This document shows positions 2,508 through 40,442 of a stretch of DNA of 64,000 nucleotides, in pieces. Origin of the DNA: Gemmatimonadota bacterium (GTDB lineage Bacteria; 4572-55; J002); assembly GCA_003697105.1 (NCBI GenBank), contig RFFQ01000146.1, positions 10,565 through 74,564 of the forward strand. The letters run 5' to 3'. Positions within the stretch are counted from its first letter, which is position 1. Every line of letters starts with the position of its first letter. Below the pieces are notes generated by a model, which saw only the letters and a program-made list of their open reading frames with translations, had not been told where the DNA came from and did no database searches. The translations under genes and the position numbers were made by a program.

Positions 2508-2533
2508 ACGGTCTCCGGTACTAAAATTTGAGA

Positions 2534-3730: not shown

Positions 3731-4596
3731 GCCGCAACCTGTTGTTGGTATCCCACATACGCACGTGCCACTTTACGGGCAAGGTTGCGTACTCGTCCAA
3801 TAAAGCGTACTCGTTCTGTCACACTAATGGCACCCCGTGCATCTAATAAATTAAAGAGATGAGAGCATTTCATGGTCATTTCATAAGCCGGATGTATCAG
3901 CGGATGCTCCTGCTCTAACGCAAGCAAGCGCTGGGTTTCGCGCTCATACATATCAAACAGGTTGAAGAGCATTGCCGTGTCGGCTACTTCAAAATTATAA
4001 GTGGAGTGTTCGTATTCTGGATCGAAATACACATCACCGTAGGTGAAATTACCGACCCACTTAATCTTTTTGAAATCGTCCACATTTTGGATGTACATCG
4101 CAATTCGTTCCAGACCGTAGGTCAATTCGACGGAAATCGGATTGAGGTCAAACCCGGCAACTTGCTGAAAATAAGTAAACTGGGAGATCTCGATCCCATC
4201 AAGCCAAACCTGCCACCCAAGCCCCCAAGCTCCGAGTGTCGGAGATTCCCAATCATCCTCAATGAAGCGGACATCATGTTTATCCACCTCGACCCCTAAC
4301 TCCCGCAAGCTGTTGAGGTACAAGTCTTGAATATCATCTGGGGAGGGTTTTAACAGCACTTGGTACTGAAAAAAGTGTTGCATCCGGTTGGGATTTTCGC
4401 CGTACCGACCGTCTTTGGGGCGGCGGGAGGGCTGAACATAAGCGGTTTTCCACTCTTTTTCACCGAGTGCCCACAGAAATGTGGCTGGGTGAAACGTACC
4501 GGCGCCCATTTCCAGATCATACGGCTGGCGGATGATACAACCATAATCTGCCCAATATTGTTGTAAGTTGAAAATGATTGATTGAAAGTCCATCAA
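3727..4596 (-). CDS. glyQ: Glycine--tRNA ligase alpha subunit
   Basis: [52 protein letters not shown]. Confidence 0.97.
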
Positions 4597-4633
4597 AAAT
4601 GCTCCTTATTTTATATGTACACGGTACTAAAAT

Positions 4634-24220: not shown

Positions 24221-27200
24221 TTATTCACGTTTACGCAAATCGATAATCGGTTGGGCGTTTGCCGTTACTTGTAAGGTATCCATTTGTTTGTTGCAGAGGG
24301 TACCGGTGTCATCTTCTACGGTTAATGTAACGGTGTACACCCCCGGTTTTTCATACTCATGGGTTACTTCCACGCCTTTGCCTGTATGGCCGTCCCCAAA
24401 ATTCCAATAATAACTTAGATTGTCCCCATCAATATCGTAAGATTGGCTGCCATCAAAGGTCAGAGCACAGTTTGCGGTTTTCACACACGTGACCCGATCG
24501 TCACCGGCAATAGCAACCGGTGGGGTATTGGCTTTAATCGTTTTTGTGACGATGGTGGTGTTACATGCGCCGGTGGTGTTATCCGTCACACGCAAGGTCA
24601 CAGTATAATGCCCTGCTTTGGCGAAAGTATGGGTCGCGGTTTTGCCTGAAACTTCCGGCGATCCATCCCCAAAATCCCAAAAGTAGCCGGTGATTTGCCC
24701 GTCGGAATCGGTGGAGGCGGCGGCATTCACTTCAAACGAGCTACCCGGACAGACGGAGGAAGGTGCGTCAATCTTCGCCAATGGCGGATTGTTGATGGAG
24801 ACCTGCTTGACGTCTGTTGCCCGTCCAGAAGACAAGCCCGAATTATCGGTAACGGTCAAAATCACTTGATATACCCCCGGTTGCTTATAGGTATGCGTTG
24901 GTGCTACACCGGTTTGAGTCGGTGACCCGTCCCCAAAATTCCATTCGTATAAAATGATTGTCCCGTCGGGATCCACCGACTGGGAGCCGTCAAATTGCAC
25001 CGTCAAATCGCAGAGGCCATCAATATCCGGACCCGCATCCGCGACGGGTGGGGCATTGACTGTCACGGTGAGTTGATCGATTGCCATGCTGCAATCCAGA
25101 CCGGAATTATCTTCAACGGAAAGTGTTACCGTGTATCGCCCCGGTTCGCCATATTTATGGGTCGTACTTACCCCTTCGACCGGTTTGGAGCCATCCCCGA
25201 AATCCCAGCGGTACACCTTGATGTACCCGTCCCTATCAAAAGATTGCCCGCCGTTGACCGCAATTTCCTGATTCGGATTGACCAATTTATCATCTCCGGC
25301 AACAGCAACGGGTAAATCATTGACCAGAACAGTCTTAGAGATGTTACTCTTCGAGCAGGGCAACCCTCGTCCATCATCCACGGTGACAATGACTTTATAA
25401 CGTCCCGGGGATTGGTAAATATGGGTCGTGGATAAGCCGGTACCCGTGTTTCCGTCGCCAAAATCCCATGTAGCTGTTAGGGGATCACCATCTGCATCAG
25501 TGGAGGCGGTGGCATCAAAGGAAGTGATTGCACCCACGCAAGTGTACTGCAACCGTTCGCCAATGTTCGGCGTGGGGGGTGCATTGATGGTTACTTGAGT
25601 TTTTGCAAAGGATTGGTTCATTTTTGTGTCGGAATTATCGGTAACGATCAGCGTTACGTCATATGTGCCGGGTTGTTCATACAAATGGACGACTTTTGCA
25701 CCTTTGCCGGTTTGCCCGTCGCCGAAATCCCACTGATAATCCATGATCATGCCGTCAGGGTCACTGGACCCGGAGGCGTTCAATTCTACCCGCCCGCTAC
25801 AGACTACCTGTGACGGGTTCACCTTAGCCACCGGTGGATAGTTGATTACCACGAGCATTGTATCCCGGTCAAACCCTTCCGGTAGCCCGCTATCATCTCG
25901 CACGGTTAAAATTGCCTGATATTGCCCGGATTCTGCATACGGGTGGGTGACGATTTTCCCCGTTTCCACCGGTGAGCCATCCCCAAAATCCCACTCGTAA
26001 CTCACGATGTTGCCATCTCGATCCGAGGAAGAGGAGCCATCAAACGTGATCTCTTGTCCGACGTGTCCGATTTGCATTCCTTCGGTCAGGGCTTCCGGGG
26101 GATAGTTGACGGTCACTGTGAGTTCGTCGGTGTCGTTACTGCACGGACCTAACGCCGTATTTTTTACGGAAAGTGTGACCTGATATTGCCCCGGTTTGCG
26201 ATAGATGTGTGTTGCTGTCATGCCTTCCACCGGATCGGAAAGGTCGCCAAATGTCCATTTGTAGGTCAATGGGTATTGATTCGGGTCTTGAGACCGTTCA
26301 CCGCTAAAATGAACTTCTTGTCCTACACTGACCAAGCGGTCTTCACCGGCATCGGCGGTGGGGGCGCTCTCTACGGTGATCGTTGCGGTATCGGTATCAA
26401 TGGCGCAAGGTGTTTCGGAATTATCTTGAACCGTCAACACCACGTGGTAAACGCCGGGCGCAGCATAGGTGTAGGTGGGTGAAAGTTCTTCCACGGGCGC
26501 TGTTCCATCGCCGAAATCCCAAATATAGTTGAAGAGTTCCCCGTCTGGGTCAAAAGAGCCGCTGGCATCAAAAAAGATAGATTGACCAAGGCAGACCGTT
26601 CGATCCGGACCGGCTTCTGCCACGGGGGAGGAATTGATCCCGACGGTAATCTCCGCAAAATGGGTATTGCATTCGGACGGCGAATCATCCAACACCACCA
26701 GTTTGACCTTATAAACACCGGGTTGTTCATAGGTGTGTGTGGGTTGGGGTCCTTTACCGACGGCACCATCGCCAAAATACCAGAGATACTCCATGATGAC
26801 TCCGTCTGGATCGATTGATTGGCGCCCGTCAAATCGAACGGTTTTCTCACAAGAGACGATATTTTCACCGGCGTTGGCTACCGGCGGTTCGTTGACAAAC
26901 ACGACCATGCCATCAGTATTGGTGTTACATTCGGTATCGGAATTATCGGTAACAACTAGCCGTACATTATACGAGCCGGATTTTTCATAAGTATGTTCCA
27001 CAATCGCACCTTCTGCCGAGTTTCCATCACCAAAATACCACATGTATTGGGTGATAGTGCCATCGCGGTCATAGGACTTCGTGCCGTCAAAGCGGATCGT
27101 TTCGCCGACGCAGGAATAACGGGATGTACCGGCTTCGGCGACAGGTGGCTCATTGATGATGATGGTCAAGGCGTCGGTGTCGGTATCATTTGCCGCACCG

Positions 27201-28747
27201 GAATTATCTTGCACGGAAACCGTCACGACATAGGAACCGGGTTCGCGGTAGGTGTGTACCACGCGCGCACCTTGGAGCTGTGTTCCATCGCCCATATCCC
27301 AGAAGAAACTAAGCAGATTGCCGTCGGGGTCCTGGGAGCGGGAGGCATCCAGTACCACCGTATTGCAAAAGGGGAGCACATCCTCGCCGGGAACAAGCCC
27401 TTCATAAACTTGGCTACCATGAACTAACAACGTTTCATCCGGCAACACCGACCCCGCTTTGAGAGTCAAATCTTCTCGTAAGATGAGCGCTTCCTCCAAT
27501 GTGACATCCCGATCCAAAACCGTCTGTGCTGGGATACGTTCTCCACCTCGCACCCGAATATCCTGTGGAATTTCGGTGCCCTTGGCGAGGGTTGTCCCTT
27601 TGGGTAAGACGGAACCCGCCCGAAGTTCCACATCAGACTGCACCACATGGCTTTGGTCGAATAAAATATCTTCGTCCAGCTCAAATAATTCGGGAGAAAA
27701 GGTCTCGTCTTGTAGCGTGAGGGGCTTGCCAGAACGAGGCTGGACGGTGGAATACATGGGAAGGGGTTGGTAGTTCTGGTCGGTGACATAGATCACCACA
27801 TCATTATTACGGAAGGTTCCTTTTTGAATTTCAAACGTCCAGGGCGACTCGTAATCTTCTTCTAAAATATTATACGTGGTAGAAAACCACCGTTTGACAT
27901 CATCTTGGGGGGGAATCGGCGGATGTTCATCATCCACACCGAGATCATATTTGGTCACTGCCCAGACGTTATTTCCGGCGGTGTAGGCGGGTATTCCGGG
28001 TCGCGTTGGTGTGTTAAGATACATCACGCTATCATTATCAAAGTCCCAAATATGGTGAATGAGGTAAGTGACATCTCGCATAACCATAAACGGGAATGTA
28101 TGCAATACCACCCCTTTTTCATTGGGCATCCGGAACGACCATTCATAGGCAAAGACTTGAATCTCGGTTGGGGTGGTTGGTCGATCGGGGAAAATGGAGC
28201 AATCTACGCGGTATAGATTCCCGTCATCGCCCTGAATGCCTTCTACAATTAGTTTGAAGATAAAATCCCCGTCGGCATATTCCCCTTGCGCCGGATTCAC
28301 GGTGGCAAGCACAATCCATTTTCCATCCGTTTCGAGCTGCTCGGCAAATGTTGTGTCCGCCAAAAGAGTCCCCGAGCGGTAATCTCCGGTAGGATTGACG
28401 CCGCGGGCATCAGCAACTGTATAGGCACCTTCTCCTCCGTAAAGCGAAAATCGTGTTTGGGTGTCCCACATCCCTTGTGGCTCATCAACTTGGCCGCCCG
28501 CTTCCGGATCATAAATACGGATATATAATGAATCCACAATTTCTTCCGGAATAGCGAAAAAGACGGTCTGTGAAAAATCGTCATCACCCCAATCTGGGGC
28601 ACTTTGATTACCAAACGTACACAAATAGGGAATATTTAAACTGGGATGGGGGACTTCATCCGCTTCTTGGTAGGATGGTGTTCCGATGATAAAAAGGATT
28701 CCCAAAAACAGGGTTACGAGGACGTTACGGAACATCGGTGTAAACAT
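24221..28747 (-). CDS. Large exported protein with 12 tandem PKD domains
   Basis: N-terminal signal/TM, unknown N-terminal domain, 12 W(D/Y/N/T)(F/M)GD motifs with H.Y..PG.Y.V.L.V.D; ATG 28747 with GGAGG SD. Confidence 0.9.
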   Translation of the reverse strand: MFTPMFRNVLVTLFLGILFIIGTPSYQEADEVPHPSLNIPYLCTFGNQSAPDWGDDDFSQTVFFAIPEEIVDSLYIRIYDPEAGGQVDEPQGMWDTQTRFSLYGGEGAYTVADARGVNPTGDYRSGTLLADTTFAEQLETDGKWIVLATVNPAQGEYADGDFIFKLIVEGIQGDDGNLYRVDCSIFPDRPTTPTEIQVFAYEWSFRMPNEKGVVLHTFPFMVMRDVTYLIHHIWDFDNDSVMYLNTPTRPGIPAYTAGNNVWAVTKYDLGVDDEHPPIPPQDDVKRWFSTTYNILEEDYESPWTFEIQKGTFRNNDVVIYVTDQNYQPLPMYSTVQPRSGKPLTLQDETFSPELFELDEDILFDQSHVVQSDVELRAGSVLPKGTTLAKGTEIPQDIRVRGGERIPAQTVLDRDVTLEEALILREDLTLKAGSVLPDETLLVHGSQVYEGLVPGEDVLPFCNTVVLDASRSQDPDGNLLSFFWDMGDGTQLQGARVVHTYREPGSYVVTVSVQDNSGAANDTDTDALTIIINEPPVAEAGTSRYSCVGETIRFDGTKSYDRDGTITQYMWYFGDGNSAEGAIVEHTYEKSGSYNVRLVVTDNSDTECNTNTDGMVVFVNEPPVANAGENIVSCEKTVRFDGRQSIDPDGVIMEYLWYFGDGAVGKGPQPTHTYEQPGVYKVKLVVLDDSPSECNTHFAEITVGINSSPVAEAGPDRTVCLGQSIFFDASGSFDPDGELFNYIWDFGDGTAPVEELSPTYTYAAPGVYHVVLTVQDNSETPCAIDTDTATITVESAPTADAGEDRLVSVGQEVHFSGERSQDPNQYPLTYKWTFGDLSDPVEGMTATHIYRKPGQYQVTLSVKNTALGPCSNDTDELTVTVNYPPEALTEGMQIGHVGQEITFDGSSSSDRDGNIVSYEWDFGDGSPVETGKIVTHPYAESGQYQAILTVRDDSGLPEGFDRDTMLVVINYPPVAKVNPSQVVCSGRVELNASGSSDPDGMIMDYQWDFGDGQTGKGAKVVHLYEQPGTYDVTLIVTDNSDTKMNQSFAKTQVTINAPPTPNIGERLQYTCVGAITSFDATASTDADGDPLTATWDFGDGNTGTGLSTTHIYQSPGRYKVIVTVDDGRGLPCSKSNISKTVLVNDLPVAVAGDDKLVNPNQEIAVNGGQSFDRDGYIKVYRWDFGDGSKPVEGVSTTHKYGEPGRYTVTLSVEDNSGLDCSMAIDQLTVTVNAPPVADAGPDIDGLCDLTVQFDGSQSVDPDGTIILYEWNFGDGSPTQTGVAPTHTYKQPGVYQVILTVTDNSGLSSGRATDVKQVSINNPPLAKIDAPSSVCPGSSFEVNAAASTDSDGQITGYFWDFGDGSPEVSGKTATHTFAKAGHYTVTLRVTDNTTGACNTTIVTKTIKANTPPVAIAGDDRVTCVKTANCALTFDGSQSYDIDGDNLSYYWNFGDGHTGKGVEVTHEYEKPGVYTVTLTVEDDTGTLCNKQMDTLQVTANAQPIIDLRKRE

Positions 28748-28843
28748 TGGGATTGATCCTTCCTCCTTAAAATTTTGCTTGAAATATGCGCGGGCATGGT
28801 CTATAATTAGAAACAATTGCGGATTGTTGTACAGATTCCGTCC

Positions 28844-28872: not shown

Positions 28873-28981
28873 TAATTTTTCGGGATGATTTACTCCGGTT
28901 TATCATCCGGTGTAACTTGTTGATAATTAAATAGTTGTGGATGGCATTGATACCTTATTTAGCTCTAGAAAAGCGAAACGT

Positions 28982-31900
28982 ATGACCACCTATAACCCGT
29001 ACCTTTCTGAGGCTGTTGACACGCCTTCTTTTTTTTATGGGCGCTCGGAAACAATTCGTTTTATACTCAACCAACTGCAAGAACCTCAGGCTCACCCGAT
29101 CATCTTGTTTGGACAGCGGAAAGCGGGTAAAACCGCCGTTTTTCGCCATCTACTGCACCTCAAACCGGAGGGGTTTGTGTGGGTCTATTTTGATTTGCAA
29201 GGGTATGTACATGCGCCGTTAGCGGAAACCCTGTTCCATTTGGCAGAAGCCATTGCGCACCAACTGGATATTGCCATTCCCACCAAAAAAACCTTTTTGA
29301 AAGATGACCATTTCTTTGAAACCAAATTTCTGAATCAAATTCGGAGTGCACTCAAAGACCGTCACCCGGATCAGCCTCCGGCAATGGTGTTGTTGCTGGA
29401 TGAATTTCATCTACCGCGCGGAGCAGATGTTGCCCGCGACGACACTATTGTGACCTTTTTTCCCTTCCTCTACCAGTTATTACAAAAGGATGCACCGCTA
29501 CGGCTGGTGCTCACTTTTGGACCGGAATTAGCCATTTCCTACCGGAACAATCCACAGGCATATCAATTATTGACCCAAATTTTATCATCTCCACTGCTCC
29601 ACGAGGGCGTGTCACATCATGTTACCTCTCTTTCCGTTGAAGACGCCCTAAAACTGATCAAAGAACCGGTTGGAAATCAATTGGTGTACAACCCGGAAGC
29701 CCTAGACCGCATTTTGAGCCTTGCTAGTACGTGTCCCTTTTTGATCCGCCAACTCTGCGGTCTTATCTATGAGAAAAAACAACCGGCTGACTCCGAACCG
29801 GTGGCGATCTATTCCACAGATGTGGAAGCGGTGAAAACCGAATTTATCCGCCGCTTGCACTCCCATTTTGATGCCCTCTGGGACGATCTGCCCCTCGTGC
29901 AAAAAGTGATTTTCTGGCTTATTGCCAAACACCGGGATTCTCAGGGTGCCGTTCCCCGGCAGAAATTGGTTTCTCTATTGGAACGCCAGCATATCAAATT
30001 GCCCAAAGGTTTATTCCAAAACCACGAGTTAGTAGCAGAAGAGAACCATGTTGTCCGGTTTCGCATCGGCGGTTTTGGGGATTGGCTGGTGGATCAGGAT
30101 GTCGAAAATGATTTGATGATCGATTTTGGGCATGCCGAGAACTCCAACAAAGATGGGAGTAGTGCCCATTTTGCCGGTGAATTTGAACGGGCGCTGGAGT
30201 ATTACCGGGAGGCGGTGGCTATCAATCCTTACCACCTAGATGCCCAGCTTGGTATCGCCGAAGTCCTGAGCCAATTGGGACGCACCGAAGAAAGCATTGA
30301 GGAGTACGAAAAAGCGTACCAATTAGACCCGTTTTTTGTGGCAGATGATCTGGTCAATGCCCGCTTAAAGTATGCCGGAGAATTGGAACAAGCCGGCGAT
30401 AAAAATGGCGCCATTCTGCAATACAGCCGTATCTTGGAAATCTCACCCAACCATATGCGAGCCCAAGAGCTGTGGGCGGAGTTGGTACTGGAAAAAGGAC
30501 AAAACTTGTGTGAACAGGAAAATTGGGACGACGCGATCTATTGGTACCAGCAACTCTTGAACGTGGCACCAGCCTTGACCGTGGCACGATGTGCCCTCGC
30601 CGAAGTATATCTGCGGAAGGGAGAGTACGAAGCGGCGGTGAATGAATATGAAAAAGCCCACAATATCGACCGCAGTGAATCTGTGGCACACGGTTTGGCA
30701 AAGGCACGCCTCAAATGGGGTGAAGAACTCAAAGAAGAGGGGATGACCCCAGAAGCAATTGCCAATTATAAGCGAGTTCTTCTCACCGAACCGGATGAGG
30801 AAACCCGGGAAACGACCATCGCCAATTTGGTTAAATTGATGCTCCGCCGGGCGGATCAAAGTGCTCAAGCCGGTGACCTGTTAAAAGCTCGGGAGGAATA
30901 TCGCCGCGTGATCGAGATGGACGGTAATTGCTTAGAAGCCATGATCAAAGAAGCCGGTGTTGTCTATGCCATGGGTGATTATGACGAAGCGATTCGCCTG
31001 TTTGAAGCCGCCTGTGAAATCAATGAGGACATCGCTAAACCCGCCATGATTGCCACTCAACTCAATTATGCCGATCGATTAGCCACAAATGGCGCTTGGG
31101 ACACCGCCATGGAGGTGTGCGACACCGTTCTTGCGCTCGACCCGGAAAATGTGTTGGCACAGGATAAACGCCGGCAATTTGAAGACCGCCGGAATCAGAC
31201 TCCACCGGTGGCAGATGCCGGCACCACTGGTGAACCGGTTTCGACCGCTGATCCAGACCCCGTTACCGCGGATTCCGAGCAGGATACTGTTGACCTCGAC
31301 CGGGAATACCAGCAGGCGATGGCATATCTGGAAAATAAACAGTGGGATGAGGCGTTGGAATCCCTCAATCATATTTTTGAACAGGACCCAGACTACCGGG
31401 ATGCGGATCAAACCCCGATACCGGTCTGGATTAGCCGTGCCTTTTTGGCCCGTGTCGGGCTTGCCGAAGACCTCCTGCCCCAACGCATACAGCAGTTGGA
31501 AGCGGAACTTGCTGCCCTAAAAGACGCTCATGCGGTGGAATTAGAAACCTTGCGCACGGCGGAAACTGAGGCAAGTTGGCAGTTAGAGTCGCTGGAAACC
31601 GAACGAGACCAGTTGCAGATAGAACTGAAAACCGTCCAGCGCCAATTAGCGGATGCCGAGGCAAAAGTCAAACAGATGGAGGCAGAAAACCTGATCCGGA
31701 ATGCAGAAGTGGCTGCCCATTCACAAGACCTTTCGGTACACGTCACATCTGCCGACCAAACTATCGATGAAATGAACGACTTGATCGCGCAACTGAATTT
31801 AGAAAAACAAGCCCTTAAACATGAAGTGGCGCAGTTGCGAGACCAATTACTGGAACAAGCCGATCTGTTTGACCACTCGGAGGATACTCCCCAAGAGACC

Positions 31901-34879
31901 CTCTTGGCAGAGACGGAACAACTCCAGCACGAAAACGACCAACTCCGTAAAACGAACGAGATGCTTGCCGCCCAACTCCAACGCTTACAAGAGGAAATAG
32001 AAGCCTCCGCCCCACCGGCTGAAACCGGAGCACCTGCGGCGGATCGCATTGCGGAACTTGAAGCCCAGCTTGCCACGCTAAAAACAGAACGTAATGAGTT
32101 ACAAACCGTACTGGATCAGGTACAGTCCGATGCGGCGGAGCTTAAACAGGAATTCACAAGCCTACGCGAACAGCACCAGCATGACGCCGAGACCGTTAAA
32201 GCGCTGGAACAAGCAAATCGACAACTCCAAGAAGAAATCGTTGCCTTGGAACAGGATGCGATTGACCCGCAGGAATTGAAACAAGCGGAAGAAACCATTG
32301 CCCAATTGACCCGTGAACGAGATCAATTGCAACTGGATTTGCAGGTCGCAAATGAAAAACTGAAAACCTTACAAAATTCGATCCAAAATACGCCGGATCG
32401 ATCCGCTGAAATTAGGGCATTGGAAAACGAAATTGACATCCTCACAGAACGTTTAGAACACGCCACCGGTAAGGAAAACAAGCTGATCCAGAAAAACGTC
32501 AAGATGATGGACATCAACACCCGGTTGCTCAAACAGATTTCCGAATTGCAGACCGAAGTAGAGAATGCCCAATCCCGGCTAAATGAAACAACTCAGCGTT
32601 ATGAAAAGACCGAAATTCCCGCCTACAGGCTCAAACTTGAAAATCTGAAACGGGAGTTGGAACAGCAGACGGCGGATTATGACCAATTACACGCTGAAGT
32701 GGAGCATCTTCGGGCAGAAAATCAGCAATTACACGATCAGATTGCGCAACTGGAAGACCGAACCTCTGAACTCGACCTCAACCTGAAAAGTTATGAAACA
32801 GACCAACTGCGACCGTTGGAACAGGAGGCGAATACACTCCGCCAACAATTGCACGAACGGGATCAGCAGATAAATGAACTCCAGAAAACCATTACCCGCT
32901 TGGAAACTCAATTGGACAACTTGAAGGCGGATTTGGCAGAGCAACAACGTCGCTATGAGGAAGTTGAAATCCCAAAACGAGAAGATGCCATCCGGGCATT
33001 GGAAGCCCAACAGCAAGAACAGACGGCGGCTCAGACTGCACTGGAGGAACAACTCCAACGCACACAAGCCGAGCTAGATGACGCACGCCAACAATGGCGA
33101 GATATTGAGCACGATTATAAAACACTTCAAACGACGAACCAAGACCTCCAGCACCGAGTTGAAGACCTGCAACACCAATTGGAGACCATTCAACACGAAC
33201 GAGACCAACTCCAACAAGAAATCACCGGTTTGCAGCAGAAATTAGAAGCAGAACAATTCCGACATCAGGAAGAACGAAAGTCGTTAAAAAGCGAAATTGA
33301 AACGTTAGCCACGGAAGCCGAACAGTACGCCCTCCAGACGGATGAACTGCGACAATTGCTCACCCAGCAACAAGCCACCGCCGAGAAACTGCGGGCAGAA
33401 TATGACCACTTAGAAGAGCAATACGAACAGGTGCGCCTGCCAGAGCTAAACGAAAAAATTCAGACATTGCAAGAGAACGTCACTCATCTGGAAGCGCGAC
33501 AGGTAGAACTGGAAAATCTGCTGGATAAAGCCGAACGCGATTTAGCCTACCGTCAGGAACGGCTGAACCAATTACAGCAACGATATGATACGGAAACGGC
33601 ATCCTTGCGGCGACAAATTGAGAACCTCTCCCAAGCGCTCGAGGCAAAATCCGACAATGAACAAAATCTATTGGAAAACAACACGGCGCTGACGCGTGCC
33701 AATACGGATTTGTTGCGACAGTTGTCGCAGTTAAAAGATGAACTGAATGAGGCTCAAAGACAACAAGCCCAATTTGAACAGATCGAACGCCTCCAGTTAC
33801 AAAATGAAATCGATAAACTCAAGCGAACCTTAGCCACCGAGGAACACCAGCGAGAACACTTGGAAAGCGAACTGGAAACGGCGACGCAGGCGCTGGAAGA
33901 TGCGCATCAACGGGCAATAACTCTACAACAGGATTATGAAGAAAATGTGATTGCCCCCCTCCAACAAGAGGTGGATGACTTGCGCCGGACCGTGAATGAA
34001 GCTAAAACACATGAAGAGATTTTACAACGCCGGTTGCGTGAAATGGAGCAGGAAAATCATCAATTGGTACGTGATCTGGAAGCATTGCGCGAAGAATATC
34101 AAACCGAACGCTTGCCCCAATTAGAGCGACAACTCAAAGACCAACAGGAAGAAACGGCGGCTAAAGCCAACCGCATTCGTGAACTGGAGACCCAACTCCA
34201 CATTAAGGACCAAGAGATGGCGGCGTTGCGGACAGAACTTCAGCAGATGCAAACACACTATGAACAGGAACGCTTGGCTCCGTTAGAGCAGCGTCTGGCA
34301 CAACTGGAAACGCAACTGTTTGAAGCCGAAGGTAACCTCAGTGATGCCCGGGCACATGCCACCTCCCTGCAAGACCAAATTGATGATTTACAGCAACAGT
34401 TGGAAGAACAACAAATTCGGTATGAAGTTCAGCAGATTAAGCCGCTGCAACACCAGATCGACCTTCTTCAACAAAAAGTAACCGCCGCGGAACGTACCGA
34501 AAATCAATTGAAGGCAAAAGCGGAAGATGCTGAATCCGCCCACCAGTATGCGTTGCAACAGATTGAAGTTTTGCAGGATGAAATCGATCTCCTGCGGGAA
34601 AAAGCCGATCACGTTCGCCAACAGTACGAACACGAGCGCATTCCCGCCTTGCAACGAAAGATCGAGCGCCTCACCCAATCCAACCATGAAAAAAGTGAAA
34701 ATATTGAACGGCTGAACCGGCTTCTTGCCGAAAAATTGGAAGAAGAAGAAGAATTGCTCCGCCACAATACGGAAATGAGTGATAGCAATACCCGTTTGTT
34801 AAAGAAAATCAATGAGTTGCAGCGAGAAATTGTCTCATTACGCCAACCGTTACCCAACGCTGATACGGAAGAGTCATGA
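28982..34879 (+). CDS. Giant STAND-like P-loop ATPase - TPR - long coiled-coil protein
   Basis: NPY..FYGR, Walker A GQRKAGKT, Walker B LLLDEF, TPR array, then ~1100 aa of E/Q/L-rich heptads with periodic Y-E-x3-(I/L)-P motifs. Confidence 0.85.
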   Translation: MTTYNPYLSEAVDTPSFFYGRSETIRFILNQLQEPQAHPIILFGQRKAGKTAVFRHLLHLKPEGFVWVYFDLQGYVHAPLAETLFHLAEAIAHQLDIAIPTKKTFLKDDHFFETKFLNQIRSALKDRHPDQPPAMVLLLDEFHLPRGADVARDDTIVTFFPFLYQLLQKDAPLRLVLTFGPELAISYRNNPQAYQLLTQILSSPLLHEGVSHHVTSLSVEDALKLIKEPVGNQLVYNPEALDRILSLASTCPFLIRQLCGLIYEKKQPADSEPVAIYSTDVEAVKTEFIRRLHSHFDALWDDLPLVQKVIFWLIAKHRDSQGAVPRQKLVSLLERQHIKLPKGLFQNHELVAEENHVVRFRIGGFGDWLVDQDVENDLMIDFGHAENSNKDGSSAHFAGEFERALEYYREAVAINPYHLDAQLGIAEVLSQLGRTEESIEEYEKAYQLDPFFVADDLVNARLKYAGELEQAGDKNGAILQYSRILEISPNHMRAQELWAELVLEKGQNLCEQENWDDAIYWYQQLLNVAPALTVARCALAEVYLRKGEYEAAVNEYEKAHNIDRSESVAHGLAKARLKWGEELKEEGMTPEAIANYKRVLLTEPDEETRETTIANLVKLMLRRADQSAQAGDLLKAREEYRRVIEMDGNCLEAMIKEAGVVYAMGDYDEAIRLFEAACEINEDIAKPAMIATQLNYADRLATNGAWDTAMEVCDTVLALDPENVLAQDKRRQFEDRRNQTPPVADAGTTGEPVSTADPDPVTADSEQDTVDLDREYQQAMAYLENKQWDEALESLNHIFEQDPDYRDADQTPIPVWISRAFLARVGLAEDLLPQRIQQLEAELAALKDAHAVELETLRTAETEASWQLESLETERDQLQIELKTVQRQLADAEAKVKQMEAENLIRNAEVAAHSQDLSVHVTSADQTIDEMNDLIAQLNLEKQALKHEVAQLRDQLLEQADLFDHSEDTPQETLLAETEQLQHENDQLRKTNEMLAAQLQRLQEEIEASAPPAETGAPAADRIAELEAQLATLKTERNELQTVLDQVQSDAAELKQEFTSLREQHQHDAETVKALEQANRQLQEEIVALEQDAIDPQELKQAEETIAQLTRERDQLQLDLQVANEKLKTLQNSIQNTPDRSAEIRALENEIDILTERLEHATGKENKLIQKNVKMMDINTRLLKQISELQTEVENAQSRLNETTQRYEKTEIPAYRLKLENLKRELEQQTADYDQLHAEVEHLRAENQQLHDQIAQLEDRTSELDLNLKSYETDQLRPLEQEANTLRQQLHERDQQINELQKTITRLETQLDNLKADLAEQQRRYEEVEIPKREDAIRALEAQQQEQTAAQTALEEQLQRTQAELDDARQQWRDIEHDYKTLQTTNQDLQHRVEDLQHQLETIQHERDQLQQEITGLQQKLEAEQFRHQEERKSLKSEIETLATEAEQYALQTDELRQLLTQQQATAEKLRAEYDHLEEQYEQVRLPELNEKIQTLQENVTHLEARQVELENLLDKAERDLAYRQERLNQLQQRYDTETASLRRQIENLSQALEAKSDNEQNLLENNTALTRANTDLLRQLSQLKDELNEAQRQQAQFEQIERLQLQNEIDKLKRTLATEEHQREHLESELETATQALEDAHQRAITLQQDYEENVIAPLQQEVDDLRRTVNEAKTHEEILQRRLREMEQENHQLVRDLEALREEYQTERLPQLERQLKDQQEETAAKANRIRELETQLHIKDQEMAALRTELQQMQTHYEQERLAPLEQRLAQLETQLFEAEGNLSDARAHATSLQDQIDDLQQQLEEQQIRYEVQQIKPLQHQIDLLQQKVTAAERTENQLKAKAEDAESAHQYALQQIEVLQDEIDLLREKADHVRQQYEHERIPALQRKIERLTQSNHEKSENIERLNRLLAEKLEEEEELLRHNTEMSDSNTRLLKKINELQREIVSLRQPLPNADTEES

Positions 34880-37800
34880 TGGACAAAAACCGGTACGAAC
34901 AGGAGATTGAGGATTTACGGCGCGAGATTGATAGCCTAAATCGTGTTTTGCGGGAAAAATCCGCCTACGAAGACCGTCTGCAAACCAAAAATAAACGGTT
35001 GATGGAACGCAACAACCAACTGTTTAAGCAGGTTGCCGAATTGCAAGGAGACGTCGCCCGTCTGCACCAGCAGGTGTTCGCGCTCAATAAATCACCGGAA
35101 AGCTACCAAACGGCGGTCTTGCAGGCTGAATTAGACCAGTTGCAATCGGTGGTGAACGAGTTGCAATCTCGTGAAACATCGCTCCTCGCCGAGAATCAGC
35201 GCTTAAAAACGGATTTGAATCATTGGCGATCTGCCACGGCGCAGGATTCGCATGAGACGGTGCGTAAAACGGCTGAAATAGAGCAACTCAAACGGGCACG
35301 GCAAGAGGCCGAAGAACGCCTTTCCCGCAAAACCGCCGAATTTCTGGAACTGAGCGAACGCATTGGAGAACTGGATCGCATCTACGAAAAAACCATTGCG
35401 GAAGTCAAACGGTTACGCGAACAATTGACCGCGACGAAAGCGGAAAATCAGGACAAAACAGCCCGGCTGGCAAAGCTCCATGCTGAACAAGAAGACTTAC
35501 AAGCACAATTGGTATCCCAGCAGTCCCGTGCGGCGGAGATGCAGGCGCAGTTGGCAGAGACTCGCTCTAAATTGAATCTGGCAGAGAAAAATATCCAACA
35601 GTTGACCGAAACTCTGCAAAAATATGAGCATCACCAAATACCGGTATTGCGCTCCCAACTGGATGATCTGAACCGCCAAATATCTGAAAAAGATAAAGAA
35701 ATAAATATCTTACGCAAAAAAAATGAAGCCTTGGGGTCGGCAACCTCCGGTGCGGAGGCCTCCGCGGATGATGATGACACACGCCACCGGGAACTTCAAC
35801 AGGAGGTGGAGCGTCTCAACAACGTGATCTCCCAAAAAGAGCGGGAACTGGAAATTTTAGCGCAGGATAAGCAAAAACTGGTCGATCAACAACTTCATTT
35901 TCAGCAAAGTTTGCAAGCGGAACTTGCCGCGAAAATTGAACTGGAATTTCAACAGCGTGAACTCAACACCAAACTGGCCGCCGCCCAGCAAGAAATCGAG
36001 ACGTTAAGAGCAGAACTTGCCGCTCGACCCGAACTGGCTACTGGCACGGATGGGCTTGAAACCGACCTCCAAAACTTGCAGGCACTGCTGGAGGAGCGGG
36101 ATGCGACCATCGCCTCATTGAATGCCCAACTTTCTGAGATGGCAGACCCACTCGTCGCGGCTAAAGCTGAAAGTTTGCAACAGGAGTTGGATACCGCCCG
36201 GCGAAAAATTTCCGATTTGCGCACGGAAAATTCGTCTTTACAGCAGCAGTTGAACGACTTGAAAACCGCATTGGAGCATCGTCACTCCATCGAAGCAGAG
36301 ATTACCAGTCTATCTGCCACCATTGACCGGCTTAACCAATCGTTGGAAGCATCTGCGGCGGAAAAAGCCGATTTGAAGCGTGCCTATGATTCTCTGCGGC
36401 ACGAGTGGGCAACACTTTACGAGCGTTTAAACCAACCCGAACCTGTGTCTTCCAAAAAGAAATATCCGGCGTTTTGGTTGTGGTCGGTCTTCTTTTTACT
36501 TCTGGCGGTGCTGTTGCTCTTTTTACCGGAAACCCTTGACCAAACCAAATCGGTGTTTCCCCTCTCCAACCCACCGGTTATAACCCGTTTGGGTGCTCCT
36601 GACTCGATGACCTCCAATGTCACCCCGGCACCTCCGGTTCCGAGTGCAGATTCAACAACGGTAATCGCGGAAATGCCGCCGGAAAGCTCATCTCCGGCAG
36701 CTATAACCCCCGGCATCACTCCGGCTTCTGATTCAACAACGGTAATCGCGGAAATGCCGCCGGAAAGCTCATCTCCGGCAGCTATAACCCCGCCTGCATC
36801 CGCACCGGAATCTGGAACGGTGGGTGCTGAACCGGCGCCGGAAACCGCTCCCCGCATGACGGTAGAACCCGAAACGACACCGGTTGCCGGCACGCCCGCT
36901 TCCGCATCATCCCCGACGTTTACCTTACCGGCTACCGTTGATTTGAGTGTGGATGTCAGTGGTGGAGAAGCTCCCTTAAAAACCACGTTCCACGCCCCGT
37001 TGCCAGAACCCACACCGGATAATCTCAACTTTTTGTGGGATTTTGGGGATGGGGTAACCAGCCGTCAGGCATCCCCCACCCATACCTATGTCCAGCCGGG
37101 TATTTACACCACCCGTCTGAACTTGCAATACGGTCAGGATTCCAAAACGGTTGGACAAGTCACGATTCAAGTGGATGCCCCCCCGCCCCCGCCAATTGCA
37201 GAAGCCTCGCTCGGCGAAGGGGATGCTAACCAAGGAAAACTCAAAACTGCTCCGCTGGCAACCCCAACCCCTAAACCCCGGTTGCAAGTCTCTACTACCG
37301 AAGGACGCGCCCCATTGGAAGTCCGTTTTTCATTAAGCGGGCTTGAAGGGATGCCGCATCTCTCCTATTTGTGGGATTTTGGGGATGGCAGTACCAGCAG
37401 TACCCAAGCGAATCCAACCCATATCTACCAAATGGCAGGAAATTATCGGGCTGTGGGTGTTGTCAAGCAGGGGAATCAAATTGTGGCGGAAGTCTCGCAG
37501 ACGATTCGCGTGGTGCCGGATCAGCGCAATGTACGGATTCAACAGTTGCATGCCATAGAAGAGATGGTTTTGATTCCGGCTGGAAATTTCCACATGGGTG
37601 ATTTTCGAGGTGAACCGGATGCACAACCGCAAATTATTGTCTTCTTAGATACCTATTATATTGATAAATACGAAGTTACCAATGCCCAATATGCGGAGTT
37701 TCTGAATCGTATCAATTATACACCAACAGATGATAAATTCATTGAAATTTCGCACCCGGATTGTAAAATTTACTACGACTCGGATCAGGGATTTAAAGTT

Positions 37801-38277
37801 GAACCGGGTTATGAGTATTATCCCGTGGTTTGTGTCAGTTGGTACGGGGCAGATGCGTATGCCAAGGCACTGAATAAGCGATTACCCACCGAAGCGGAGT
37901 GGGAAAAAGCGGCACGGGGCGAACAAGATGTGCGCAGTTACCCTTGGGGAAATCAGTGGATCCCCAATATTGCCAACACCCGGGAACTCTCTTTGGGCAG
38001 TGGACCAACCAAAGTGGGGCGATTTCCTGCCGGTGAAAGCCCTTACGGGGTGGTTGATCTCATCGGGAATGTCTCTGAATGGTGTGCCGATTGGTATCAA
38101 GAAGATTTTTATCAGCGGCATTCTGGTAAGAATCCGGCGGGTCCCGTTTCGGGTACGATGCGCGTTTATCGCGGCGGGTCTTACAGCGATCTGGGTGCGC
38201 ATGCCCGCGTGTTTGATCGCGCCGCGGCAAGCCCAGATGCCAAGCATCCAACCCGAGGGTTTCGCTGTGCCCGGTAG
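34876..38277 (+). CDS. Coiled-coil - TM - Pro-rich - 2xPKD - FGE/SUMF1-like domain protein
   Basis: ~515-aa coiled coil, TM FWLWSVFFLLLAVLLLFL, two WDFGDG PKD domains, YEVTNAQY, RLPTEAEWEKAARG, GNVSEW, RGGS, GFRC; ATGA overlap with upstream gene. Confidence 0.88.
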   Translation: MMDKNRYEQEIEDLRREIDSLNRVLREKSAYEDRLQTKNKRLMERNNQLFKQVAELQGDVARLHQQVFALNKSPESYQTAVLQAELDQLQSVVNELQSRETSLLAENQRLKTDLNHWRSATAQDSHETVRKTAEIEQLKRARQEAEERLSRKTAEFLELSERIGELDRIYEKTIAEVKRLREQLTATKAENQDKTARLAKLHAEQEDLQAQLVSQQSRAAEMQAQLAETRSKLNLAEKNIQQLTETLQKYEHHQIPVLRSQLDDLNRQISEKDKEINILRKKNEALGSATSGAEASADDDDTRHRELQQEVERLNNVISQKERELEILAQDKQKLVDQQLHFQQSLQAELAAKIELEFQQRELNTKLAAAQQEIETLRAELAARPELATGTDGLETDLQNLQALLEERDATIASLNAQLSEMADPLVAAKAESLQQELDTARRKISDLRTENSSLQQQLNDLKTALEHRHSIEAEITSLSATIDRLNQSLEASAAEKADLKRAYDSLRHEWATLYERLNQPEPVSSKKKYPAFWLWSVFFLLLAVLLLFLPETLDQTKSVFPLSNPPVITRLGAPDSMTSNVTPAPPVPSADSTTVIAEMPPESSSPAAITPGITPASDSTTVIAEMPPESSSPAAITPPASAPESGTVGAEPAPETAPRMTVEPETTPVAGTPASASSPTFTLPATVDLSVDVSGGEAPLKTTFHAPLPEPTPDNLNFLWDFGDGVTSRQASPTHTYVQPGIYTTRLNLQYGQDSKTVGQVTIQVDAPPPPPIAEASLGEGDANQGKLKTAPLATPTPKPRLQVSTTEGRAPLEVRFSLSGLEGMPHLSYLWDFGDGSTSSTQANPTHIYQMAGNYRAVGVVKQGNQIVAEVSQTIRVVPDQRNVRIQQLHAIEEMVLIPAGNFHMGDFRGEPDAQPQIIVFLDTYYIDKYEVTNAQYAEFLNRINYTPTDDKFIEISHPDCKIYYDSDQGFKVEPGYEYYPVVCVSWYGADAYAKALNKRLPTEAEWEKAARGEQDVRSYPWGNQWIPNIANTRELSLGSGPTKVGRFPAGESPYGVVDLIGNVSEWCADWYQEDFYQRHSGKNPAGPVSGTMRVYRGGSYSDLGAHARVFDRAAASPDAKHPTRGFRCAR
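36649..36791 (+). repeat. Exact 62-bp intragenic direct repeat x2 (period 81 bp)
   Basis: 36649-36710 is identical to 36730-36791, encoding DSTTVIAEMPPESSSPAAITP. Confidence 0.95.
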
Positions 38278-38366: not shown

Positions 38367-40442
38367 ATGACGGCAGTAACCACACCTAAATATACGGATT
38401 TGCACGATCCGAGTCTCTATTTCAATCGCGAACTCAGTTGGATTCAGTTTAACGAGCGCGTACTCCGGGAAGCTCTAGACCCCGATAATTGGCCCCTATT
38501 GGAGCGACTCAAATTTCTCTCCATTTTTAGCACCAATTTGGATGAATTTTTTATGATTCGGGTTGCCGGTCTTAAACAGCAGATCGGTGCGGAGATTCAC
38601 AAAAAATCTCCGGATGGCCTCACGCCAGAAGAGCAACTCAAATTAATTTCAGAGCAAGTTCACCGGCAAGTTGACGCCCAGATAACGTGCTTCATGGAGG
38701 ATATCTTGCCCAAACTGGAAACTGCCGGTATTTATTTTCATCACTACCGTGACTTAAATCCGGCGCATCGGAAATTCTTAGATAAACTCTTTAAAAAAGA
38801 TATTTTTCCGGTATTGACTCCGTTGGGCTTTGACCCCGGACGACCGTTTCCCCATTTGCTGAATATCAGTATTTACATTGCTTTTTTTGTTAGAGATGCG
38901 AATCAGCACGAGGAAGAACCCAAATTTGCCATTGTACAAATGCCCTCTACATTGCCTCGCTTAATTCCCCTCCCGTACAAGCGAGGCACACATTTTGCCC
39001 TGTTGGAAGATGTTATCAGTGCAAATGCGCATCGCCTTTTTTTGGGATATGATGTCCTCGAATGCTATCCTTTTCAGGTCACCCGAGATGCGGACTTGGA
39101 AATTGCCGAAGATGAAGCGGATGACCTGCTGGAAACGGTAGAACGCGAGGTCAATAAGCGGCGGTGGGGTAAAGCTGTTCGTCTGGCGATTGATCACTGT
39201 ATGCCGGATAAGATTCGGGGTATCCTCGCGGACTCCCTCAATTTGCACCCGCAGGATGTGTACGAAGTGAAGGGTCCCTTGAATCTCTCTGATTTTATGC
39301 AACTGTATAAACTGGATCGACCGGATTTGAAAGATAAGCCGTTCACGCCCCGTTCCGTCCCCGATGTGCAAGGTTATAATACCATTTTTGATGCGATTCA
39401 GGAGAAAGATATTCTCCTTCACCACCCGTATGAATCTTTTAATAGTGTCATTGATTTTGTGCGAACCGCCGCAGAAGACCCCAACGTACTTGCCATTAAA
39501 ATGACGCTTTACCGCACGGGAGTGGACTCGCCGATTCTGCGGGCACTCTCTACCGCCGTGGAAAATGGAAAACAAGTAGCGGTTCTGGTGGAGTTGAAAG
39601 CGCGGTTTGATGAAGAAAATAACATCGTTTGGGCACGGTTACTGGCAAAATCCGGGGTTCATGTGGTGTATGGCTTGTTAGGCTTAAAGACCCACTGTAA
39701 AGTTGCTTTAGTTGTCCGGCGTGAGGGTAATCTCATCCGGCGGTATGTTCACTTGGCTACCGGCAATTACAATCCCACAACGGCTAAAATCTACACCGAC
39801 TTGGGCTTGATGACGTGTCACCCAGATTTTGGCGAAGATGTATCCCACCTGTTTAATTATCTGACGGGTTATTCTCGCCGCCAAAAATGGCGAAAATTAC
39901 TGGTTTCACCCCTCAATTTACGGCAAGAATTGATTCGCTTGGTGCGGGATGAGATCATTATCCATGAAAAAAGCGGCAACGGCTGGATTATCCTCAAAAT
40001 GAATTCCTTGCTCGATGCCGAAATGATCCGCTATTTGTACCAAGCGTCACAAGCCGGTGTCCGGGTTGATCTGCTGATCCGGGGGATTTGCTCGTTGCGT
40101 CCCGGCGTGCCGGGGATTAGCGATAACATTCGGGTCAAGAGTATTGTGGGGCGGTTTTTGGAACACAGCCGGATTTTTTACTTTCGGAATGGTGGTGATG
40201 AACGTGTCTATTTAGGCAGTGCGGATTGGATGCCCCGCAACCTCGACCGGCGCGTAGAAACCGTTTTCCCTGTGGAAGACCCGCGCTTGAAGCGTCGCAT
40301 CACGGATGAGATTTTGATAACCACCTTGAAAGACAATGTGAAATCATACGAACTAAAAAGTGATGGTACGTATGAAAAGATTCCGCACTCCCCTGAAAAT
40401 GCAGTGAATTGCCAAGAAATATTTCTCAATGAATACGACTAA
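38367..40442 (+). CDS. ppk1: Polyphosphate kinase 1
   Basis: NRELSW, NLDEFFMIRVAGL, HHPYESF, ELKARFDEENN, KTHCK, GRFLEHSR, SADWMPRNLDRR. Confidence 0.97.
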   Translation: MTAVTTPKYTDLHDPSLYFNRELSWIQFNERVLREALDPDNWPLLERLKFLSIFSTNLDEFFMIRVAGLKQQIGAEIHKKSPDGLTPEEQLKLISEQVHRQVDAQITCFMEDILPKLETAGIYFHHYRDLNPAHRKFLDKLFKKDIFPVLTPLGFDPGRPFPHLLNISIYIAFFVRDANQHEEEPKFAIVQMPSTLPRLIPLPYKRGTHFALLEDVISANAHRLFLGYDVLECYPFQVTRDADLEIAEDEADDLLETVEREVNKRRWGKAVRLAIDHCMPDKIRGILADSLNLHPQDVYEVKGPLNLSDFMQLYKLDRPDLKDKPFTPRSVPDVQGYNTIFDAIQEKDILLHHPYESFNSVIDFVRTAAEDPNVLAIKMTLYRTGVDSPILRALSTAVENGKQVAVLVELKARFDEENNIVWARLLAKSGVHVVYGLLGLKTHCKVALVVRREGNLIRRYVHLATGNYNPTTAKIYTDLGLMTCHPDFGEDVSHLFNYLTGYSRRQKWRKLLVSPLNLRQELIRLVRDEIIIHEKSGNGWIILKMNSLLDAEMIRYLYQASQAGVRVDLLIRGICSLRPGVPGISDNIRVKSIVGRFLEHSRIFYFRNGGDERVYLGSADWMPRNLDRRVETVFPVEDPRLKRRITDEILITTLKDNVKSYELKSDGTYEKIPHSPENAVNCQEIFLNEYD

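Follow-up and report, generated by a model that had tools for sequence, protein, structure and literature searches.

Putative halves of a membrane-spanning STAND/ORC-like ATPase encoded by two overlapping genes of a Gemmatimonadota bacterium

The window analysed here, 64,000 nucleotides (nt) of contig RFFQ01000146.1 (assembly GCA_003697105.1) of a Gemmatimonadota bacterium, contains a pair of overlapping genes on the forward strand, here called A and B, that together occupy positions 28982 to 38277. Protein A consists of a STAND/ORC-like ATPase, a TPR array and a very long coiled coil; protein B of a second coiled coil, a single transmembrane (TM) helix, a proline-rich linker, two PKD domains and an FGE-like domain. 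We read the two as the halves of one membrane-spanning, receptor-type ATPase whose gene was split inside its linker and which would work by induced proximity, a reading to which we give a probability of about 0.55. Since one-chain relatives carry an ATPase-TPR module, a TM helix and an outside domain in this same order, A and B may be taken as a split member of that family, with a linker inflated by duplication of a 54-residue unit. STAND/NLR-type (nucleotide-binding leucine-rich-repeat) ATPases are understood as cytosolic sensors; unlike that picture, the family concerned appears to wire a STAND-type switch through the membrane to a binding domain outside, and A/B, divided in two and with by far the longest linker seen, would be its most extreme form. 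An initial annotation, made from the letters of the sequence, had coupled the two genes into a trans-envelope system of no recognised architecture; its interpretation is partly supported by the present results. In what follows, handles beginning with P, L and C denote cluster representatives, genomic loci and contigs of the source genome (G000), respectively.

Two genes, their junction and a common repeat unit

The features of the locus are listed below in plain coordinates of the window; all lie on the forward strand (+).

28982..34879 (+): gene A, 1965 amino acids (aa) from the ATG at 28982; the open reading frame (ORF) is open from a GTG at 28937 (1980 aa)
28982..30106 (+): STAND/ORC-like ATPase module of A (nucleotide-binding domain, helical domain, winged helix), from AlphaFold2 (AF2), Foldseek and AAA_16
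29111..29134 (+): Walker A motif GQRKAGKT; G44, R46, G49 and K50 invariant in 30 aligned family members
29390..29407 (+): Walker B motif LLLDEF; D140 and E141 invariant in the same 30 members
30149..31402 (+): TPR array of A, residues 405-822 (TPR_2 E 1.7e-29, TPR_1 1.9e-24, many related TPR models)
31460..34852 (+): coiled-coil rod of A, about 1,130 aa, in 54-aa proline-punctuated units, with super-repeats of about 380 aa from about residues 1158, 1549 and 1923 (composition, periodicity, self-comparison)
34876..34879 (+): ATGA start/stop overlap of A and B (junction DNA and contigs of three runs)
34876..38277 (+): gene B, 1133 aa, ATG start
34876..36450 (+): coiled coil of B, predicted to be cytoplasmic, homologous to the A repeats (A/B alignments; unit copy at B 230-283)
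36463..36534 (+): single TM helix YPAFWLWSVFFLLLAVLLLFLPET of B, residues 530-553, with KKK on its N-terminal side
36553..36930 (+): Pro/Thr/Ser/Ala-rich linker of B (27 P, 20 T and 19 S in 135 aa) with a 21-aa direct repeat
36943..37509 (+): two PKD domains of B (PKD_4 84 bits and PKD 67.1 bits, two stretches each)
37558..38274 (+): FGE-sulfatase/C-type-lectin-like domain of B without the catalytic Cys pair (190.4 bits; alignment to 6s07; under NCBIfam cut-offs)
28779..28807 (+): promoter-like site TTGAAA-17-TATAAT, 11/12 hexamer matches, in the 120-nt divergent intergenic region 5' of A

The junction DNA reads ...GAGTCATGATGGAC..., with a double ATG; the TGA of A (34877-34879) and the ATG of B (34876-34878) overlap as the initial annotation had described, and the frame of B is stopped by a TGA (34861-34863) five codons 5' of its ATG. 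In contigs of three runs from two studies (X1, possibly the source itself, X2 and X3) the junction is identical, with zero indels, a comparison of contigs in which rare variants would not show. Because of the ATGA overlap and this identical junction, the split of A and B between two genes is real. That one gene was broken by an assembly frameshift, or that two independent genes happen to abut here, is very improbable. The assembly is indeed of metagenome type, in 199 contigs, and a single indel within about 13 nt before the ATG of B would fuse the two frames; against this stand the indel-free contigs, the exact ATGA with its double ATG, and an independent ATGA split in the closest relative (L027, described below), and independence of the two genes is contradicted by a repeat unit confined to A and B. 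A single frameshifted gene was rejected on the basis of the junction and the identical contigs. For A itself the ATG at 28982 is the likely true start, because the resulting M-T-T-Y-N-P-Y aligns the family-invariant N5-P6-Y7 with 29 relatives.

The rod of A (residues ~842-1972) is rich in E, Q and L, with 18 prolines and 5 glycines in about 1,140 residues, and shows a 3.5-residue hydrophobic periodicity with a median z of 3.35 (52 windows) as against about 0 in the ATPase and TPR controls; residues 1-525 of B are likewise coiled-coil-like, with a median z of 6.7 (23 windows). The two coiled coils of about 1120 and 515 aa that the initial annotation had pointed out are thereby confirmed, at about 1,130 and 525 aa. 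By a composition filter, 1,179 residues of A and 444 of B are coiled-coil-like. The longest such stretch elsewhere measures 420 aa in 149 representatives of the ATPase family and 325 aa in 104 ORFs of family loci, so that the combined rod is about four times the former and five times the latter. A single-sequence AF2 model of A 1640-1980 gives two helices of 138 and 187 residues (predicted local distance difference test, pLDDT, 80; predicted template-modelling score, pTM, 0.31). If fully extended at about 0.15 nm per residue, the rods would reach about 170 nm (A) and 78 nm (B), together about 240 nm; the 165 nm given earlier for A thus holds as the upper bound of a fully extended rod, while the coiled coil is not featureless, being built of 54-residue units.

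These units carry the motif YE.ER[LI]P.L; A has nine clear copies and B has one. Searched as a profile, the unit matches A and B alone among the 8,779 ORFs of at least 80 aa in the genome; the profile was built from A and B themselves, and its informative part is that it never matched a third protein. Direct alignments also join the two rods: B 10-110 matches A 1158-1265 at 34% identity (E 2.8e-7), and B 6-293 matches A 1549-1872 (E 1.9e-6); of 20 shuffled versions of B, 18 gave no match and two gave one at 20.4 bits. The first 60 residues of B match the start of each super-repeat of A (~1158, 1549, 1923), and the gene boundary therefore coincides with a repeat boundary within one duplicated array. 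A complex prediction of A 1640-1980 with B 1-340 scored 0.00 against a mark of 0.34; made without controls, it counts neither way. Because of the ATGA overlap and the absence of the 54-aa unit from every other ORF of the genome, it is supported that A and B form a functional pair, and the coupling of the two genes in the initial annotation is borne out to this extent.

The ATPase family and its one-chain members

Scanned alone, residues 1-420 of A match AAA_16 (PF13191) at 43.8 bits (cut-off 32.6) and AAA_22 (PF13401) at 30.6 (cut-off 27; 25.1 and under the cut-off in the full-length scan), with ATPase_2 slightly under its cut-off (27.9 vs 33.2). The AF2 model made from a 30-sequence alignment reaches pLDDT 89.1 and pTM 0.84, and its Foldseek matches in the PDB are led by 2qen (query template-modelling score, TMq, 0.54), followed by Cdc6/Orc1, SSO1545 (2fna), plant NLR resistosomes, CED-4 and MalT; the STAND/ORC-type matches lie between E 7e-10 and 1e-6, with TMq of 0.36 to 0.54. 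As modelled, the fold is the arrangement of nucleotide-binding, helical and winged-helix domains (NBD-HD-WHD) of STAND/ORC-type switches. All 19 family-invariant columns of the 30-member alignment are present in A, Walker A and B included, and because these residues are intact and the fold is of this kind, the ATPase is likely active. Leipe and colleagues reportedly described, in 2004, a conserved GR(E) motif upstream of the P-loop in STAND NTPases. A contains FYGRSE upstream of its P-loop, and G20 and R21 are invariant in the family alignment. The Pfam model nSTAND2 (PF20702) does not match A, and does match 9 of the 30 aligned relatives. Four precomputed Pfam accessions (PF27583, PF23649, PF24161 and PF27605) fall on A/B, and one of them might already name the ATPase family. 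No effector domain precedes the ATPase, which begins at residue 5. The STAND-like ATPase and TPR array of the initial annotation are thus upheld by Pfam, AF2, Foldseek and the TPR models.

An exhaustive HMMER search with A 1-420 against 1.84 billion cluster representatives returned a family of 2,886 representatives at E<=1e-3 (1,057 at <=1e-10 and 18 at <=1e-30), the best of them 35% identical to A over residues 3-418. In these proteins of 500 to 2,600 aa the ATPase module is nearly always N-terminal. For the best 149 of the 2,886 representatives we called TM segments by a crude filter (19-residue Kyte-Doolittle window >=1.8): at least one lies downstream of the ATPase in 105 (one in 76, several in 29), and none in 44. 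After a single TM segment the median tail is 271 aa (76 of the 149), and the tails scanned with Pfam (33 representatives) contain WD40, PD40 and Sortilin/BNR propellers, periplasmic binding proteins, FGE-sulfatase and SH3 domains; some cytosolic variants carry kinases or further STAND modules. A has no TM segment, while B has both a TM helix and an outside domain, and it is A plus B together that match the architecture of the family. The earlier statement that the architecture is unrecognised does not hold, since the same order of modules is found in one polypeptide across this large family.

An FGE domain similar to that of B ends five of the 149 representatives (P0019, P0056, P0072, P0121 and P0135; PKD in none of them) and two of the 104 locus ORFs (L034 and L089). 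The seven FGE-bearing rows occupy five separate places on a 60-row tree of the ATPase module, and because they are so scattered the tree suggests that the combination of ATPase-TPR with FGE is recurrent. Three of these single-chain proteins (P0019, 982 aa; L089, 949 aa; L034, 900 aa) are among the known proteins closest to A/B: they have the NPY...GR...GQRRxGKT...DEF ATPase, the winged helix and the TPR at 27-35% identity to A, then a short coiled coil, a TM segment (P0019 at 508, L089 at 626) and a C-terminal FGE-like domain. They differ in being one polypeptide with a linker coiled coil of only 50-100 aa, and in L034 the filter finds no TM segment. By record titles, the 78 best family loci belong mostly to Chloroflexota/Anaerolineae and filamentous cyanobacteria (Calothrix, Nostoc, Moorena, Stigonema), with single loci from Myxococcales, Moduliflexus, Zixibacteria, Parabeggiatoa, Methylococcaceae and Bryobacteraceae.

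In B, the single TM helix follows a KKK, from which the positive-inside rule gives a predicted N-in/C-out orientation and supports the cytoplasm-to-outside topology proposed earlier. The remaining anatomy given for B in the initial annotation (TM helix, Pro-rich stalk, two PKD domains and FGE-like domain) is confirmed by Pfam, composition and hydrophobicity. The direct repeat of the linker begins at residues 592 and 619, 27 aa apart (36649-36792; B 592-639). FGE-sulfatase (PF03781) matches B 895-1133 at 190.4 bits (cut-off 23.3), and FGE structures in the PDB match at E 3.5e-31. In the alignment to the FGE of Thermomonospora curvata (6s07), ...GGSFLCHESYCNRYRV... lies opposite ...GGSYSDLGAH---ARV... 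of B: the first catalytic Cys is replaced by Asp and the second falls in a gap, so that the catalytic pair is missing, as had been noticed before. The domain lies under every NCBIfam equivalog cut-off: those of GldK (90.7 vs 350) and EgtB (73.9 vs 360), and also those of PorK, SenA and PvdO.

The nearest parallel to the split itself is L027, from a metagenome-assembled genome (MAG) of the Anaerolineae, which is the best tblastn match (5e-50) and groups with A, P0005 and P0006 in a 4-row set of the tree (SH-like approximate likelihood-ratio test, SH-aLRT, 97). Its ORFs 1586-3181 and 3178-5547 overlap by ATGA; the first (531 aa) is ATPase-TPR without a TM segment, and the second (789 aa) has TPR-like helices, a TM segment near residue 277, a P/T-rich linker and a PD40 propeller. 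Thus the pair shares with A/B its clade, the overlap, and the succession of an ATPase-TPR gene and a gene for helical repeats, TM and ectodomain; it differs in being split in the TPR-like region and not in a coiled coil, in a linker of about 270 aa, and in a PD40 ectodomain instead of PKD-FGE. It is the only other clear split among the 104 family ORFs in 78 loci.

A two-piece receptor and the readings that compete with it

We propose the following course of events and mechanism. In the family, a single chain usually carries, from its N-terminus onwards, the cytoplasmic ATPase and its winged helix, the TPR array, a coiled coil of modest length, a TM segment and an extracytoplasmic binding domain; in the source lineage the gene would have been split in the linker into two translationally coupled genes, and repeated tandem duplication of the 54-residue proline-punctuated coiled-coil unit would have extended the linker to about 1,650 residues. 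B would sit in the membrane and show its PKD-PKD and non-catalytic FGE/lectin-like domains on the cell surface, with A docked on its cytoplasmic rod through the homologous coiled coils. Clustering of B by a multivalent ligand outside the cell (a glycan or protein belonging to a neighbour, the matrix or a phage) might then raise the local concentration of A heads, which would undergo ATP-dependent oligomerisation of the STAND type. Output could pass from the TPR/ATPase platform to proteins encoded elsewhere, e.g. paralogous cytosolic ATPases with kinase or adaptor domains; a possible partner in the source genome is an nSTAND2-kinase protein on C40. We favour induced proximity because a conformational signal along so long a rod is unlikely. 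The anatomy, the membership of the family, the split and the common repeats are established by the sequence, whereas the binding of A to B, the direction in which a signal would run, the ligand and the output are inferred.

A number of observations weigh against this two-piece receptor. A rod of up to about 240 nm is hard to square with ordinary receptor signalling and points to a structural role, and the binding of A to B is a prediction from sequence. Raising the TM threshold to 2.0 or 2.2 lowers the TM-bearing relatives to 100 and 79 of the 149, respectively. The end branch of A in the tree is 3.65, against a median of 0.34, which makes its placement tentative. The best match of the FGE domain of B is a paralog from the same genome (C115, 171 bits), and family-fused FGE domains reach at most 123 bits; because the paralog outscores them, the outside module was probably shuffled in locally and not inherited from a fused ancestor. 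Neither a partner ATPase nor an effector is found in the window, the downstream genes being ppk1 and a hybrid histidine kinase, and a paralog on C67 has ATPase, TPR and coiled coil without a membrane partner. Finally, the initial annotation had proposed to look for the gene pair in other genomes: none of the collections searched yielded an ortholog of the pair, and its conservation cannot be shown.

The collections in question were the following. Word-indexed searches of 5.8 billion proteins, confined to proteins 0.55-1.75 times the query length, gave for A 1-420 one distant match (P0003, 26%), for B 1-680 a coiled-coil match only, and for A 1150-1980 none. Two scans of metagenome contigs returned no close ortholog of A or B, and 41 genomes, both same-class ones included, gave only weak ATPase matches in other architectures. 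The source lineage is a deep one: of 40 other genomes compared, two are of the same class and the remainder share the domain rank only. Protein searches found no homologs of the rod of A or of B, and the ESM Atlas only generically named TPR/AAA clusters.

The rod invites a structural reading, in which the coiled coil would itself do the work: A/B would make up a long tether, lattice or cytoskeleton-like element of the cytoplasm, with the lectin/PKD module as its anchor at the surface, and ATP-driven oligomerisation of the heads would bundle the rods, in the service of cell shape, adhesion between cells, the cohesion of filaments or gliding; we regard it as doubtful, and the ATPase-gated filament or tether of the initial annotation stands with it as a minority reading. 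About 1,650 residues of heptad-periodic helix, uninterrupted over 138 and 187 residues in the AF2 model and far exceeding the coiled coils of the rest of the family, agree with such a role, as do the locus without effector (the absence of an enzymatic effector noted earlier is borne out, the neighbours being a PKD protein, ppk1 and a histidine kinase) and the family records, whose titles often name filamentous or gliding organisms (Anaerolineae, Calothrix, Nostoc, Moorena, Myxococcales, Parabeggiatoa). The FGE domain of B is moreover weakly similar to GldK and GldJ of gliding and the type IX secretion system (T9SS), but the scores for GldK, GldJ and PorK stay far under the cut-offs. Filament formation finds no support of any kind, and the ATPase-TPR module occurs with short linkers in thousands of proteins, for which reason the rod looks like a lineage-specific elaboration and not the core of the family. 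Identity with intermediate filaments (Filament) or Tropomyosin was rejected, the Pfam matches being weak, compositional and under the cut-off, and so was identity with SMC, Rad50, JetC or LmuB, whose matches all lie inside the coiled coil and far under the cut-off (SMC 103.9 vs 567).

A dedicated role in defence or conflict is unlikely. Here A/B would be a surface-sensing NLR-like receptor for phage or non-kin cells that sets off a suicidal or immune response via adaptor-bearing paralogs. EAD7 (an effector-associated domain, EAD), a kinase and tandem paralog arrays in related loci fit this, and STAND proteins with FGE or C-type-lectin-like (CLec) domains are assigned by PMC7159879, PMC10907252 and PMC13581612 to putative conflict systems of multicellular bacteria. 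PADLOC, however, gave only coiled-coil noise for A/B (LmuB, JetC and DruC within the rods) and weak PDC-S27 matches for relatives (E about 1e-5); no effector and no defence genes lie nearby, and the N-terminus of A has no room for an effector domain before the ATPase. A template repeat of a diversity-generating retroelement (DGR) for the C-terminus of B was also looked for: blastn of its last 330 nt against the whole genome found none, only two short paralog matches at 77-80% identity, and B was rejected as a DGR variable-protein target.

If A and B do assemble, they would offer a natural two-piece system for studying how an extracellular signal and a STAND switch are linked, and a test of very long coiled coils as spacers versus signal conduits; if the rod is structural, a receptor family would have been recruited to build a cytoskeletal element. 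The furthest-reaching version of these ideas is decidedly improbable: the rod, instead of linking passively, would serve as a rigid spacer, at most about 0.2 µm long, that keeps the oligomerising ATPase/TPR hub far inside the cytoplasm while B holds on to the cell surface; A heads forming rings with ATP would gather B-anchored rods into an aster or lattice from the membrane to the interior; this would be a new cytoskeletal or mechanical-coupling element evolved from an NLR-like receptor; and the parent family would amount to a large class, so far unstudied, of NLR-like receptors that span the membrane and sense the cell exterior.

Genomic surroundings and comparison with known systems

The promoter-like site listed above is one of 11 found in the 120-nt region against 9.4 expected in shuffles, which is weak evidence for a promoter, and the promoter and terminator scans at the locus did no better than shuffles. 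Divergent from A lies a gene (24221-28816, -) whose 1531-aa product has a hydrophobic segment at its N-terminus, then about 500 aa without a Pfam match and then 12 PKD domains (PKD_4 944 bits), a domain type also present in B. On the same strand as B, 90 nt 3' of it and without a convincing terminator between, ppk1 (935 bits, TIGR03705) overlaps a receiver-PAS-HisKA-HATPase hybrid kinase gene by 14 nt (38367-42387, +). Further on (43270-46053, -) a 927-aa S8 subtilase has CarboxypepD_reg, MAM-like and FlgD-Ig domains and a T9SS type A sorting tail (TIGR04183, 33.6 vs 23); because of this tail it suggests that the source organism has type IX secretion. In the 4.18-Mb source genome 190 ORFs reach at least 900 aa; among them are a 13,855-aa ORF on contig C47 and several in the range of 2,700-3,500 aa.

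Three further family members were found in the source genome, one on C67 and two on C40. The former (C67:24490-28932, equal to L095:5491-9933; 1480 aa) consists of ATPase-TPR, about 230 aa of coiled coil, a long stretch of acidic low-complexity sequence containing FE/FD repeats and, at the C-terminus, a domain of about 150 aa without a Pfam match; it has no TM segment and no downstream partner. The cluster on C40 (L094:996-8816, -) comprises a TPR protein of 818 aa, a TPR+ATPase protein of 1081 aa and, adjoining these, an nSTAND2 ATPase-Ser/Thr kinase of 671 aa, and resembles the ATPase-kinase genes beside the TM-sensor ATPases of Anaerolineae and Zixibacteria loci. At least two family ATPases occur in 19 of the 78 related loci; ten of 11 downstream ORFs tested there encode small STAND-type ATPases, two with EAD7 and one with an OmpR-type DNA-binding domain. 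Loci L023, L026 and L028 (Anaerolineae, Zixibacteria and Anaerolineales MAGs) have in common an array of a 1041-aa ATPase-TPR-TM-BNR/Sortilin protein, an ATPase of about 698 aa (domain-scanned in L023 alone, where it has a Ser/Thr kinase) and an ATPase-only protein of about 296 aa (scanned in L023 and L026). L028 contains five family ATPases in one locus.

The open full-text literature yielded no paper on a membrane-spanning ATPase-TPR-TM-ectodomain family or on its giant coiled-coil variant; subscription journals and supplements (e.g. the 589 STAND clades of PMC13581612) lay outside that scope. Parts of the architecture do have precedents: WD40 and FGE-sulfatase-like domains are named as STAND sensors (PMC13581612), CLec/FGE domains on STAND NTPases are presented as putative antigen sensors, some predicted to be periplasmic (PMC10907252), PMC7159879 reports the FGS domain from putative conflict systems found in multicellular bacteria, and Kaur et al. 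2021 (PMC8195603) propose that the products of two-gene nSTAND2 operons assemble into hetero-multimers. Contrary to the claim of no precedent, STAND proteins with FGE/lectin sensors are thus already in print (PMC10907252, PMC13581612).

Among the known systems, the nSTAND1/NACHT-CLec DGR targets and Avs-like clades share with A/B a STAND ATPase with an FGE-like lectin fold as proposed sensor, in some cases periplasmic (PMC10907252, PMC13581612, PMC7159879); CLec STAND NTPases usually begin with an effector domain or EAD and often owe their diversity to a DGR, whereas A lacks an N-terminal effector, the search for a DGR template repeat came out empty and the sensor is on a separate polypeptide. 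The two-gene nSTAND2 operons (PMC8195603) belong to a related ATPase superfamily, as the PF20702 matches of nine of the 30 aligned members indicate, and loci related to ours pair two STAND-type ATPase genes; they differ in that A has no nSTAND2 match, B is not an ATPase and a GT4/HEPN effector is absent here. PABY2304 (2qen, of the archaeon Pyrococcus), SSO1545 (2fna) and Cdc6/Orc1 have the ATPase, helical lid and winged helix seen in the model of A 1-420, but are only 12-16% identical to it, and they are soluble proteins that stand alone, with neither TPR nor rod nor membrane partner. The T9SS ring lipoprotein PorK/GldK and true FGE have the FGE-sulfatase fold of B; from the former (TIGR03525, 90.7 bits against 350) B differs in having no lipoprotein signal and, at its N-terminus, a 525-aa coiled coil, and from the latter in the missing catalytic Cys pair.

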